Assembly (NCBI GenBank): GCA_035221665.1
Contig: CM069152.1
Location: 16,492,001-16,556,000 of the forward strand
DNA length: 64,000 nucleotides
Direction: 5' to 3'
From: Okamejei kenojei
Taxonomy: Eukaryota
Positions 13,021 through 36,501 of the stretch are shown here, in pieces. Numbering within the stretch: position 1 is the stretch's first letter; the number at the start of each line of letters is the position of its first letter. The translations under genes were made by a program, and so were the position numbers. Under the pieces are notes generated by a model. That model made no database searches. It saw only the letters and a program-made list of their open reading frames with translations, and was not told where the DNA came from.

Positions 13021-14314
13021 TGTAGGTTTTCTGTGATTATCCTCCTGAGAGCAATGGCTTAGGTTTTAATATTGACTCAGTGGAGTGGTTCACAACTTGA
13101 GTGTTACAACTGATCCAGAGCTGGCTGAAAGCCATTTTCTCCATTGCTGTGAGCTTCAGTATTTAACAACACACTGAGTTCCTCCTTGTAGTCATAACTC
13201 AGCTCAGAAACAACCCCTTCAACCAAATCATACCTGCCAATCATCTGCCCTCACCCGCCCACCCCAACCTGGCAGATGTGTTTTATGACTGTTGGCAGTT
13301 CCATCTCCCTCCTGGGATAAATAAAGTCCAATGGTATTGTAACAGACCTCCTTGGAAATTGGGCTGCAACTAAACCTTACTACTCGAAGGACCTTTGTTT
13401 AATTGTAACTATCACAGTTACAATGGTTGCTCTGGGCAATAAATAGTTAAGTTTTGCTGCTGTTGTTTTGAGATTCTCAGTCAGAGGGTGGATGTTGGAA
13501 AGCTTTCCATGATCCCGAAATAACATCCGTTGTGACGTGATTTGGGTGGTGTCAAGGATGATTGACTATGAGCCCTCACACCAGTTATCAAAGCATCCTC
13601 ACACTTTCCCCTTGACCCTAATCTTTTCAATTAAGGTGGTGTTACTCTGGCAGTAGTCTCTAGGGAATTCAGCAAGGAAATGATTGTGTTAAAGAATTAG
13701 TAGTATCAATATTCCACCCACTTTAGGTTTCGTAAAGTCAATACAAGTGATCATGGGAAAGAGGGCCTATAATTTATACATGTTTACTGCCGTGCAAAAA
13801 AAAAAAACCTGCAGATGCTAGAAATCTGAACTGAAAACAAAATGCAAATCAGCCAGATCTGAGGAGAAAAACAAAGTCAATATATGTTAATAATCTTTTA
13901 ACCGAAAGGTCTTAGATCTAAATGCTGTTTCCATCTTCACTGCCTGACCTGCTGAGTGTTTCCAACATTTGCTGCTTTGCTTTAATGTTTATTGCAATCT
14001 GTGAAGTTTTTTTTTAGCATTTCTTTTGAGCTTTGAGTCCCAGCCCCCATGTGTTGATTTTGTTGTACTGAGGAAGGTGGAAGGGAGTGGGGGGAAATCT
14101 AAGCAGCCAAGGACGGTAGAAGCACAGGCATGGGAGGTTACAAGAAAAGTGGAATAGAAACCACCCTGAGTTCCCTTCAGTTGATCATTACTTTGTGCCC
14201 AGGTGTAAAATAGCCACTGATAGGATATTGGGCATCACATTGTTAACTTGGGAATAGCACTCTGACTTGGCATTCAAAGCAGTCAATGAGGTTTTAATTT
14301 TTTCCCCACTGCAG

Positions 14315-32166: not shown

Positions 32167-33795
32167 CTAATATTAAGAATGAACATCAAATGTAAAATAG
32201 CTTCAACTAGCAAACAAAAATAACCACAATATTGTGAACCGCTTTAAGACATTTTGGCAGTTTTACATTGAGACTCTGGGGCAGCAGCAATTTATTCAAT
32301 GGACCGTGGGCTGATCTGTGATGAAAGTTAAGAAGTTGGCATAAAAAGAGTACTTGGTAGTAATATTAAGGTCTTCCTGTGCTCCTGGAACCACGCATTT
32401 ATGATTATAGGTGCTCTCATCCACCCAGTCCTTACTTTAGTATCTCTTCTGATGAGCATATCTGAAGGACAACTCTGCACAGACAGCCAGTATTAGGATC
32501 CAGTACCATATTATTTTCTGCAAGTGCTTTCCAGATTCTCAGCTTGCCATGGGTCAGGCAATAGTTTGTACTCCACAATTTGAGATTTGTAATAGAAAAA
32601 AATCATATGTGGTTAAAGTGCACATTGTCAGATTTTATTAAAGGGTATTTTTATACATTTTGGTTTCACTATGTAGAAATTACAGCTGTGTATATACATA
32701 GTCCCCTCATTTCAGGGCACCATAATGTTTGGGACACATGGCTTCACAGGTGTTTGTAATTGTGTTTAATTTCCTCCATAATGCAGGTATAAGAGAGCTC
32801 TCGGCACCTTGTCTTTCCTCCAGTCTTTTCATCGTCTTTGGAAATTTTTATTGCGGTTTATCAACATGAGGACCAAAGTTGTGCCAATGAAAGTCAAAGA
32901 AGCCATTATGAGACTGAGAAACAAAATAAAACTCTTAGAGACATCAGCCTAACCTTAGGCTTACCAAAATCAACTGTTTGGAACATCATTAAGAAGAAAG
33001 AGAGCACTGGTCAGCTTACTAATCACAAAGGGACTGACAATTCAAGGAAGACCTCCACAGCTGATGACAGAAGAATTCTCTCTATAATAAAGTAAAATCC
33101 CTAAACACCTGTCCGACAGATCAGAAACACTCTTCAGGAGTCAGGTGTGGATTTGTCAATGACCACTGTCCGCAGAAGACTTCATGTACAGAAATACAGA
33201 GCCTACACAGCAAGATGCAAACCACTGGTTAGCCGGAAAAATAGGATGGCCAGGTTACAGTTTGCCAAGAGTACCTAAAAGAGCAACCACAGTTCTGGAA
33301 AAAGGTTGTGTGGGGAGATGAGACTGACATATAAGATTAATTAGGGGCTTAATTAGGAAAGGGAAAATAGATTATGGGAACATAAAAACTGACTGCAGTT
33401 TTATAGATATGAGAAGAGAAAGAGATTAGCTAAAACAAATGTAGGTCCCTTGCAGTCAGAAACAGGTGAATTGATCATGGGGAACAAGGACATGGCAGAC
33501 CAATTGAATAACTACTTTGGTTCTGTCTTCACTAAGGAAGACATAAATAATCTGCCAGAAATAGTAGGGGACCGGGGGTCAAATAAGGTGGAGGAACTGA
33601 GTGAAATCCAGGTTAGCCGGGAAGTGGTGTTGGGTAAATTGAATGGATTAAAGGCCGATAAATCCCCAGGGCCTGATAGTCTGCATCCCAGAGTACTCAA
33701 GGAAGTAGCGACAGAAATGGTGGATGCATTAGTGATAATTTTTCAAAACTCCTTAGATTCTGGAGTAGTTCCTGAGGATTGGAGGGTAGCTAATG

Positions 33796-34254
33796 CATAC
33801 CTGCCAACTTGTGAGAATGAAAAATCGGAATCCTATTAGTCTGACGTCAGTGAGGGCGGGGCACGTGACGTCAGTAAGGGGCGGGGCACATGACGTCAGT
33901 AAGGGGCAGGGTACGTGACGTCAGTAAGGGGCGGGGTACGTGCCGTCAGTAAGGGGCGGGGTACGTGCCGTCAGTGCGGGGGGGGGGCAAGTGACGCCGA
34001 ACGCCACCGTGGCGGGGCGGGGTCATGCGGCTGCGTGCTGACGTACACCCGTGCGTGCCCCCATAAGCGGCGCAGGCGCGGTGCGCTCTCTCGCTGTCTC
34101 CTCGCCGCCGCCGCCGCCATGGGTCGCATACACGCTTCCATCCCAATTCCGAATTCCAATTTTTTTCGGAATATTGAGGAAAAAAATCGGAATTCGGAAT
34201 TGGGATGGAAAAATCGGAAGAATTCCGCCCAAATCGGAATGGTTGGCAGGTATG
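33796..34254. mobile_element. 459-bp MITE with 13-bp TIRs inserted in the CR1
   Basis: TIRs catacctgccaac / gttggcaggtatg, flanked by direct repeat ctaatg (33790-33795, 34255-34260). Removing it restores CR1 WRVANVTPLFKKG. Confidence 0.93.
33842..33976. repeat. 25-bp tandem repeat x6 (tgacgtcagtaaggggcggggtacg)
   Basis: Units start at 33842, 33866, 33891, 33916, 33941 and 33966. The first four have a perfect TGACGTCA. Confidence 0.92.
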
Positions 34255-35695
34255 CTAATGTAACCCCACTTTTTAAAAAAGGAGGGAGAAAGAAAACGGG
34301 GAATTACAGACCAGTTAGTCTAACATCGGTAGTGAGGAAACTAGCAGTCCGTTATTAAAGATGGGATAGCAGTACATTTGGAAAGTGGTGAAATTATTAG
34401 ACAAAGTCAGCATGGATTTACGAAAGGTAAATCACATCTGACGAATCTTATAGAATTTTTCGAGGATGTAATTAGCAGAGTGGATAAGGGAGAACCAGTG
34501 GATGTGTTATATCTAGACTTTCAGAAGGCTTTCGACAAGGTCCCACATAAGAGATTAGTATACAAACTTAAAGCACACGGTATTGGGGGTTCAGTATTGA
34601 TGTGGATAGAGAACTGGCTGGCAGACAGGAAGCAAAGGGTAGGAGTAAACGGGTCCTTTTCAGAATGGCAGGCAGTGACTAGTGGGGTACTGCAAGGCTC
34701 AGTGCTGGGACCCCAGCTATTATCAATATATATTAATGATTTGGACGAGGGAATTGAATGCAGCATCTCCAAGCTTGCGGATGACACTAAGCTGGGGGGT
34801 AGTGTTAGGTGTGAGGAGGATGCTAGGAGGCTGCAAGGTGACCTGGATAGGCTGGGTGAGTGGGCAAATGCATGGCAGATGCAGTATAATGTGGATAAAT
34901 GTGAGGTTATCCACTTTGGTGGCAAAAACAGAAGGGTAGACTATTATCTGAATGGTGGCCGATTAGGAAAAGGGGAGATGCAACGAGACCTGGGTGTCAT
35001 GGTACACCAATCATTGAAAGTAGGCATGCAGGTACAGAAGGCAGTGAAGAAAGCAAATGGTATGTTAGCATTCATAGCGAAAGGATTTGAGTATAGGAGC
35101 AGGGAGGTTCTACTGCAGTTGTACAGGCTTTTGGTGAGACCACACCTGGAGTATTGCGTACAGTTTTGGTCTCCAAATCTGAGAAAAGACATTCTTGCCA
35201 TAGAGGGGGTACAGAGAAGGTTCACCAGACTGATTCCTGGGATGTCAGGACTTTCATATGAGGAAAGACTGGATAGACTTGGCTTGTACTCACAAGAATT
35301 TAGAAGACTGAAGGGGGATCTTATAGAAACTTATAAAATTCTTAAGGGGTTGGATAGGCAAGATGCAGGAAGATTGTTGGGGAGGTCCAGAACAAGGGGT
35401 CACAGTCTAAGGATAAGGGGGAATTCCTTTAGGACCGAGATGAGGAAAACATTTTTCACACAGAGAGTGGTGAGTCTCTGGAATTCTCTGCCACAGAAGG
35501 TAGTTGAGGCCAGTTCATTGGCTATATTTAAGAGGGAGTTAGATGTGGCCCTTGTGGCTAAATGGATCAGGGGGTATGGAGAGAAGGCAGGTACAGGATA
35601 CTGAGTTGGATGATCAGCCATGATCATATTGAATGGCGGTGCAGGCTCGAAGGACCAAATGGCCCACTCCTGCACCTATTTTCTATGTTTCTATG

Positions 35696-36268: not shown

Positions 36269-36501
36269 TTTACTATGTTTCTATGTTTTCTATGTTTCTA
36301 TGTTTCTATGAACTTATATCAGAGTGATGGCAAGAGCAAAGCATGGAGGAGAGAAAGAACTGCCAAAGATCCAAAGCATACCACCTCATCTATGAAACAC
36401 AATGGTGAGGTGTTATGGCCTGGGCATGTATGGCTGCTGAAGGTACTGGCTCACTTATCTTCATTGATGATACAACTGCTGATGGTAGTAGCATAATGAA
36501 T

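Follow-up and report, generated by a model that had tools for sequence, protein, structure and literature searches.

Introduction

Plant Pack-MULEs serially capture GC-rich 5' fragments of genes between long terminal inverted repeats (TIRs), carry chimeric cargo and are flanked by 9-bp target site duplications (TSDs). In Myotis bats, the Helitron HelibatN3 has taken up the promoter of NUBPL together with six N-terminal codons and a splice donor, has been amplified about a thousand-fold and drives chimeric transcripts (PMC4778049, PMC4224331). The accessible text of a Pack-TIR survey of 100 animal genomes states that host fragments in animal TIR transposons are nearly always present in a single copy, counts four multicopy cases among vertebrate reference genomes, names Pack-hAT-N8_XT (frog, CAPSL 5'UTR, three copies) and Ssk-FB4 among multicopy elements and proposes template switching as the means of capture (PMC8277862).

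This report describes a TIR element located in a 64,000-nucleotide stretch of DNA of the skate Okamejei kenojei (the window, meaning the whole stretch analysed) together with its relatives in the same genome. The main reading, to which we give a probability of about 0.85, is that of a non-autonomous cut-and-paste element, likely of the hAT6 group, whose family likely captured the 5' end of RPS13 once by template switching and carried it to about 500 sites, most of them probably silent.

The skate family resembles Pack-MULEs in the serial capture of GC-rich gene 5' ends between TIRs and in its chimeric cargo, but its TIRs measure 13 bp, its TSD 6 bp and its host is a vertebrate. Likeness to HelibatN3 includes non-autonomy, a cargo of promoter, codons and donor (in 23 donor-type skate copies; the window copy has no donor), a capture biased to gene 5' ends and the stepwise addition of further cargo. 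As its sources describe it, however, HelibatN3 is a rolling-circle element without TIRs or TSD, whereas the skate element has both (TIRs and a 6-bp TSD); transcripts have been shown for HelibatN3, whereas the skate family is known from sequence alone; and the skate cargo is a ribosomal-protein promoter, most copies being donor-less through a hairpin. With the multicopy animal Pack-TIRs the family shares a captured host fragment, a TIR-free parent, distinct TSDs and GC-rich 5' cargo, but it differs from those described in PMC8277862 in carrying whole promoters and in its numbers (about 500 carriers of RPS13, 48 of CACNG, about 25 of a cargo here called B and many of a cargo called D). Among the papers listed in searches of the literature outside Repbase Reports and the supplements of PMC8277862, no account of this RPS13-carrying family appeared.

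Structure of the Element

The element and its parts in the window are as follows.

33796..34254, plus strand: non-autonomous TIR DNA transposon of 459 bp with the RPS13 5' end as cargo, hairpin subtype
33790..33795: left copy of the TSD (CTAATG, 6 bp)
34255..34260: right copy of the TSD (6 bp)
33796..33831, plus strand: native left end, 13-bp TIR and AAATCGGAA subterminal motif, common to RPS13-free siblings
33832..34136, plus strand: RPS13 segment with upstream array, proximal promoter, 5'UTR and codons 1-6 (91%, E 1e-103)
33842..33985, plus strand: six CRE/GC-box units of 24-25 bp
33992..34085, plus strand: copy of the RPS13 proximal promoter, near-identical to the gene, with motifs that we take to be a GC box (34015) and an NRF1-like site (34070)
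34086..34118, plus strand: RPS13 pyrimidine tract (likely TCT initiator/5'TOP leader) and GCC-repeat 5'UTR
34119..34136, plus strand: RPS13 start codon and codons 1-6 (family MGRMHA, window copy MGRIHA)
34136..34210: 32-bp inverted repeat with an 11-nt loop, the left arm standing where the basal subtype has the RPS13 splice donor
34211..34254, plus strand: native right end, subterminal AAATCGGAA repeats and right TIR

A first-pass annotation had described the element as a portable CpG-island promoter with a start codon, and its inventory of motifs is borne out; the TSD and the 32-bp hairpin had escaped it. The 13-bp TIRs lie at 33796-33808 and 34242-34254, and six repeats of 24-25 bp extend between them (33842-33985). 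The CRE palindrome TGACGTCA is perfect four times (33842, 33866, 33891, and 33916) and has no other occurrence in the 64 kb, while the GC box GGGCGGGG is found at 33854, 33879, 33929, 33954, and 34015. An E-box (CACGTG, 33862), the NRF1-like GCGCAGGCGC (34070) and a Kozak string at 34104 with its ATG at 34119 are also present, and the density of CpG is high (observed/expected 1.19 in the element vs. 0.31 in the remaining window).

The hairpin at 34136-34210 (z -5.65) begins 17 bases past the A of the ATG; a hairpin in such a position, if transcribed, could help start-codon recognition or enter small-RNA pathways. Two further matches are regarded as chance, namely a 12/13 match to the TIR at 13229-13241 of the window, the flanks of which are unrelated, and a match at 34121 to another GCC-rich mRNA start.

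Origin of the Cargo

The interior of the element reproduces the promoter, the leader and the first codons of the host gene RPS13, an origin that is well supported by comparison with the gene. Element positions 37-344 match the RPS13 gene on contig C18 from the upstream region into exon 1 (91%, E 1e-103; L033:7790-8066), and the family ATG opens the reading MGRMHA, the start of ribosomal protein S13. A search with the PF08069 profile detected two loci: on C18 an intron-bearing RPS13 gene, with an exon 1-intron-exon 2 structure, and on C22 a retrocopy. The junction of spliced exons 1 and 2 of the C18 gene occurs in the contigs of 4/4 sequencing runs, two of which are flagged as probably DNA (contigs were analysed). 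The earlier description of a portable promoter holds as regards a housekeeping CpG-island cassette with a start codon. The RPS13 origin had been missed: the cassette was not built by the transposon, and because it was taken from the 5' end of RPS13, its motifs, CpG density and Kozak ATG are of host origin.

Two RPS13 5' regions, 95% identical over 2.5 kb, lie 60 kb apart on C18 (50685551 and 50745300; L247 and L248) and are either duplicated in tandem or two haplotypes that the assembly has not collapsed; an intron-bearing PF08069 match was found only at the first. Both were inspected and neither has a TIR or TSD. Ribosomal-protein genes initiate in a TCT tract of the kind seen here, and the RPS13 gene start is placed in the pyrimidine tract because the C22 retrocopy begins inside it. 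This retrocopy (C22:11741870; L031:1240-1700, minus strand) is a processed pseudogene that carries poly(A) and in which the ATG has become ACG. A processed retrocopy was rejected as the source of the cargo, since some 250 bases from beyond the 5' side of the leader were captured and, with them, 9 bases of intron. A stretch of the RPS13 intron (L034:1040-1250) with AAATCGGAAT and a GC box/CRE-like motif resembles the subterminal motif of the family; no TIR was seen there.

Upstream of its proximal promoter the RPS13 gene has its own CRE/GC array of 5.2 units. It could be argued that this array is a native subterminal repeat which the RPS13 promoter received from the transposon, so that capture would have been limited to the proximal promoter and the exon, since CRE units are more numerous and better in the elements than in the gene and some siblings hold the array without the proximal promoter. 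Against such a donation, RPS13-free siblings with the same ends carry no array, no TIR or TSD exists at either RPS13 locus, array and proximal promoter are contiguous in both the gene and the element, and in one contig from another organism (depth 6, 29-base side) the flank upstream of RPS13 continues into the array; we find such a donation hardly credible. In three other organisms the proximal promoter is almost uncovered, but the reads were filtered and this is no measure of the absence of the family.

Subtypes and Direction of Capture

The captured segment runs into conserved coding sequence, where it ends. The donor pattern has 25 matches, which correspond to 23 elements and two gene copies. 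In the donor-type elements exon 1 is complete and is followed by the first 9 bases of intron 1, with the GT donor among them, and then by the right end of the transposon; with promoter and intron sequence in the cargo, capture was therefore from DNA. A gene-like left junction (TAGGC) is present in 4/20 donor-type vs. 0/65 other copies, and a CTCTCTCTG-type pyrimidine tract, as in the gene, in 16/20 vs. 1/65. Donor-type copies account for 23 of the about 496 that carry RPS13, and the commonest subtype has no splice donor. In this main subtype, to which the window copy belongs, the place of the donor is taken by a second, inverted copy of the right end, which yields the 32-bp hairpin, and in most hairpin-type copies the ATG frame stays open through the right TIR.

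Perfect CREs number three in the RPS13 gene, with a median of five in donor-less and seven in donor-type copies and a maximum of 22. The array behaves as an expanding minisatellite: L240 (C6:19736842), which is of the donor type and 1039 bp long, has 22 CRE palindromes that are perfect. Its growth may reflect simple slippage or may have been favoured.

In L036, L069, L076, and others, the array ends in a nested high-copy repeat that is palindromic and flanked by a duplicated AAAGTGACCTCAG motif. This repeat also lies to either side of cargo B and may have provided the homology for switching. Template switching is suggested by short identities at the junctions and by the model put forward in the accessible text of PMC8277862.

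Family Size, Age, and Classification

Exact 13-mers of the TIR occur 1714 times vs. 11 for the control, which corresponds to about 850 elements, and the RPS13 start context is found at 499 sites (gene copies included) vs. 0 for the control. The first-pass annotation had proposed checking whether the array and the Kozak ATG are family-wide; the check was run, and both the 499 start-context sites and the family alignment agree that they are. Along contig C1, 39 TIR-paired elements were taken, of which 36 have the array and 21 the exact start context. The copies are young, with a median of 1 difference per 146 bases. Of 129 two-ended elements, a sample gathered by targeted searches and not random, 108 have 6 bp as their longest TSD (27/30 in the first alignment), and the duplicated sequences are varied.

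A separate 876-bp subfamily (L088, L093, L048) has the same TIR with other subterminal sequence, CCAAT-rich repeats and no RPS13 cargo. Two copies on C22 (L015 and L029, at 7.56 and 7.54 Mb) have identical flanks 28 kb apart and represent a segmental duplicate, not independent insertions. Four RPS13-free siblings (L049, L287, L289, L291) have an internal L1-like 3' end with poly(A), and three of them contain cargo D.

Short TIRs, CA..TG ends and subterminal repeats fit hAT elements. The 6-bp TSD is common to the skate family and to hAT6, the hAT elements with TSDs of this length as cited in PMC12730594. Membership of the hAT6 group is likely from TSD and ends, and the assignment is kept at that level because no transposase with matching ends was found: a matching TIR was absent near 30 hAT hits (1.5-kb flanks) and at 20 hAT loci (9.9-kb regions), the search for the hAT dimerisation domain having scored 150 of 1801 candidates.

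Among other candidates, long TIR-paired elements (2-3.9 kb) were rejected as the autonomous partner, as they contain host cargo and no transposase, and so was the AT-rich interior of L049, which matched an L1-like 3' end. Two hAT elements with intact-looking ends (L330:4459-7076 and L336:2704-5614) have 8-bp TSDs and a TIR unrelated to that of the skate family. IS3EU/GingerRoot elements have TA..TA (or TG..CA) termini (PMC10045372, PMC6839031) and TIRs that exceed 30 bp and measure 100-150 bp in GingerRoot (PMC12730594, PMC6839031), and were rejected on the basis of the CA..TG ends and 13-bp TIRs of the skate element. A Helitron was also rejected, as TIRs and a TSD are present instead of 5'-TC/CTRR-3' ends, no TIR and an AT target without duplication.

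Other Captured Gene Starts

The family carries four cargos, all of them gene 5' ends (RPS13, CACNG2/3, B, and D). The CACNG2/3 cargo spans the 5'UTR and exon 1 (E 1.5e-36), extends about 2.2 kb into intron 1 and occurs at 48 element sites and one parent locus on C22, which is 93-97% identical and at which no TIR was found. Cargo B, a short ATG exon with a donor, is present in about 25 elements among 28 loci examined; its parent on C6 is 88% identical, with no exact TIR found. Several GTTGC/GGCAAC-type motifs occur at this parent (L170:2320-2530, C6:114.11 Mb), which to us recall RFX X-boxes. Cargo D consists of a GC repeat, a CCAAT box and an apparent non-coding exon with a donor, and has a TIR-like end at 19/20 loci. 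Some elements carry it in the absence of RPS13; in others it is fused to the RPS13 array, and the CACNG piece may then be present or absent. The D parent on C10 is 80% identical, and no TIR was found in 59 kb. Across the family, host fragments lie between TIRs, parents have no TIR element (for B, as judged by the exact TIR only) and TSDs are distinct, which are the marks of Pack-TIRs.

The exon calls for B and D were made from sequence motifs only, and downstream open frames did not identify their genes. About 29 kb downstream of the D parent, with an assembly gap between, are LIM domain exons (L314-L318, C10:6.50-6.55 Mb; E 1.8e-18), presumably LIM-homeobox exons resembling LHX3/4.

The Insertion Site

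The neighbourhood of the element in the window comprises the following features.

33393..33795, plus strand: part of CR1 ORF2 lying 5' of the insertion, from a 5'-truncated copy, 134 open codons
34255..35604, plus strand: part of CR1 ORF2 lying 3' of the insertion, frame break near 34345 and reverse transcriptase (RT) domain beyond
34119..34358, plus strand: RPS13/transposon/CR1 fusion frame of 79 codons, no Pfam match
32866..33330, plus strand: broken Tc1-like transposase stretch (HTH_Tnp_Tc3_2, E 4e-15)

The CR1 appears to be inserted into the broken Tc1-like element, the continuation of which was read by eye near 36330. The element had been placed in front of a CR1 open reading frame; instead, it sits inside ORF2, with 134 open codons to its left and a 6-bp TSD, and contigs of other CR1 copies span the empty site, skipping 465 bases (459 + 6). 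Several other statements of the first-pass annotation stand: the frame that starts at the ATG crosses the right TIR and enters ORF2 without a stop (it ends after 79 codons), an RT frame follows (419 codons stop-to-stop, 34345-35604), and LADD and GVLQ depart from the usual motifs, since among CR1-like pieces from the loci analysed L occupies the first position of xADD in 1/17 and P the variable position of GVxQ in 20/24. The element is also, as had been said, antisense to a TNRC6-family gene, which we take to be paralogue A, and lies within one of its introns; on the minus strand, Ago_hook is matched by exons at 47.7 and 45.3 kb and TNRC6-PABC by exons at 28.8 and 25.3 kb.

The annotation had further proposed that the window copy provides a promoter and an ATG able to re-express the truncated CR1 ORF2, or that it transcribes antisense to TNRC6. 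The ATG frame does enter ORF2 and the promoter points against the TNRC6 gene, so that antisense transcription into TNRC6 would be possible by orientation. The element, however, splits ORF2, the fusion ends at codon 79 ahead of the RT frame, and the RT motifs differ from those of other CR1 copies. Within the targeted sample of 129 elements, 21 lie in CR1 ORF2-like DNA without orientation bias (10 sense, 11 antisense), only two of the 21 being in frame and open; the fusion frame is a product of chance. In addition, the array of the window copy, read in the alignment, has two CpG-to-CpA changes relative to the family majority. Re-expression of the LINE is not upheld, a role as local promoter is very improbable and the element probably has no function at this locus.

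CpG Decay and Promoter Activity

In the RPS13 core, private (rare) CpG transitions amount to 24/2954 vs. 10/3644 at other C/G positions (ratio 3.0, p 0.003; 62/83 copies passed the identity filter), which suggests that many copies have been methylated in the germ line. A CR1 control gave 45/444 vs. 248/8487 (ratio 3.5), counted over all differences, unlike the RPS13 core. No CpG excess was detected in the CACNG island cargo (5/2861 vs. 14/6871, ratio 0.86), in the left end with two repeats (ratio 1.1) or in the RPS13 core when changes shared by subfamilies were included (p 0.69). The summed contig depth does not rise from the upstream side of the leader (438-1193 at 33828-33868) to the downstream side (198-972 at 34197-34237); these figures are from contigs, which show no level, start or strand, and they weigh neither way.

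These counts bear on the idea that the captured promoters drove the success of the family, with open chromatin in the germ line aiding access of the transposase and some copies firing ectopically or trapping exons. Several observations point in this direction: the RPS13 array in 36/39 elements along C1, four independent cargos of which every one is a gene 5' end, the rise in perfect CREs from 3 in the gene to medians of 5 (donor-less) and 7 (donor-type) and up to 22, and, in the bat literature as accessible, the greater number of promoter-bearing Helitrons (PMC4224331) and the transcripts driven by NUBPL-promoter copies (PMC4778049). Others speak against it, as CpG transitions in the RPS13 core are raised 3-fold, similar to the CR1 control, the commonest subtype has no splice donor (23 donor-type among about 496), and a single founder effect could account for the share of RPS13 carriers. 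We regard this idea as doubtful. The same holds for its stronger form, promoter piracy as a survival strategy, in which housekeeping promoters would have kept the family accessible in the germ line and seeded about 500 TCT/5'TOP promoters, 23 of them with a donor, some of which might start chimeric transcripts regulated by growth signals; this too is a speculative and rather unlikely proposition.

Proposed History and Significance

According to the main reading, that of a passenger promoter in a non-autonomous element, an RPS13-free element would have taken up the RPS13 segment, leaving junctions at CC on the left and at the intron donor on the right, and the CRE array would have grown after capture. 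In one derivative the donor would have been replaced by an inverted copy of the element's own right end, the hairpin, giving rise to the main subfamily, and later derivatives would have gained the palindromic repeat and other gene starts. A transposase would have moved RPS13-bearing elements to about 500 sites, and the window copy presumably landed by chance in an already truncated CR1 within the TNRC6 intron.

Mass amplification of captured promoters in vertebrates has been documented for bat Helitrons; here, one young TIR family has picked up four gene starts. Capture, growth of the array, loss of the donor and stacking of cargo are readable because parents and intermediates persist in the genome. 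The copies will confound ATAC, CAGE and methylation mapping at RPS13 and CACNG, as well as CpG-island annotation, in the skate genome. At the same time, about 500 near-identical RPS13 promoters in varied chromatin constitute a natural test of sequence-based protection of CpG islands from methylation, and also of whether promoter cargo helps a transposon to spread.
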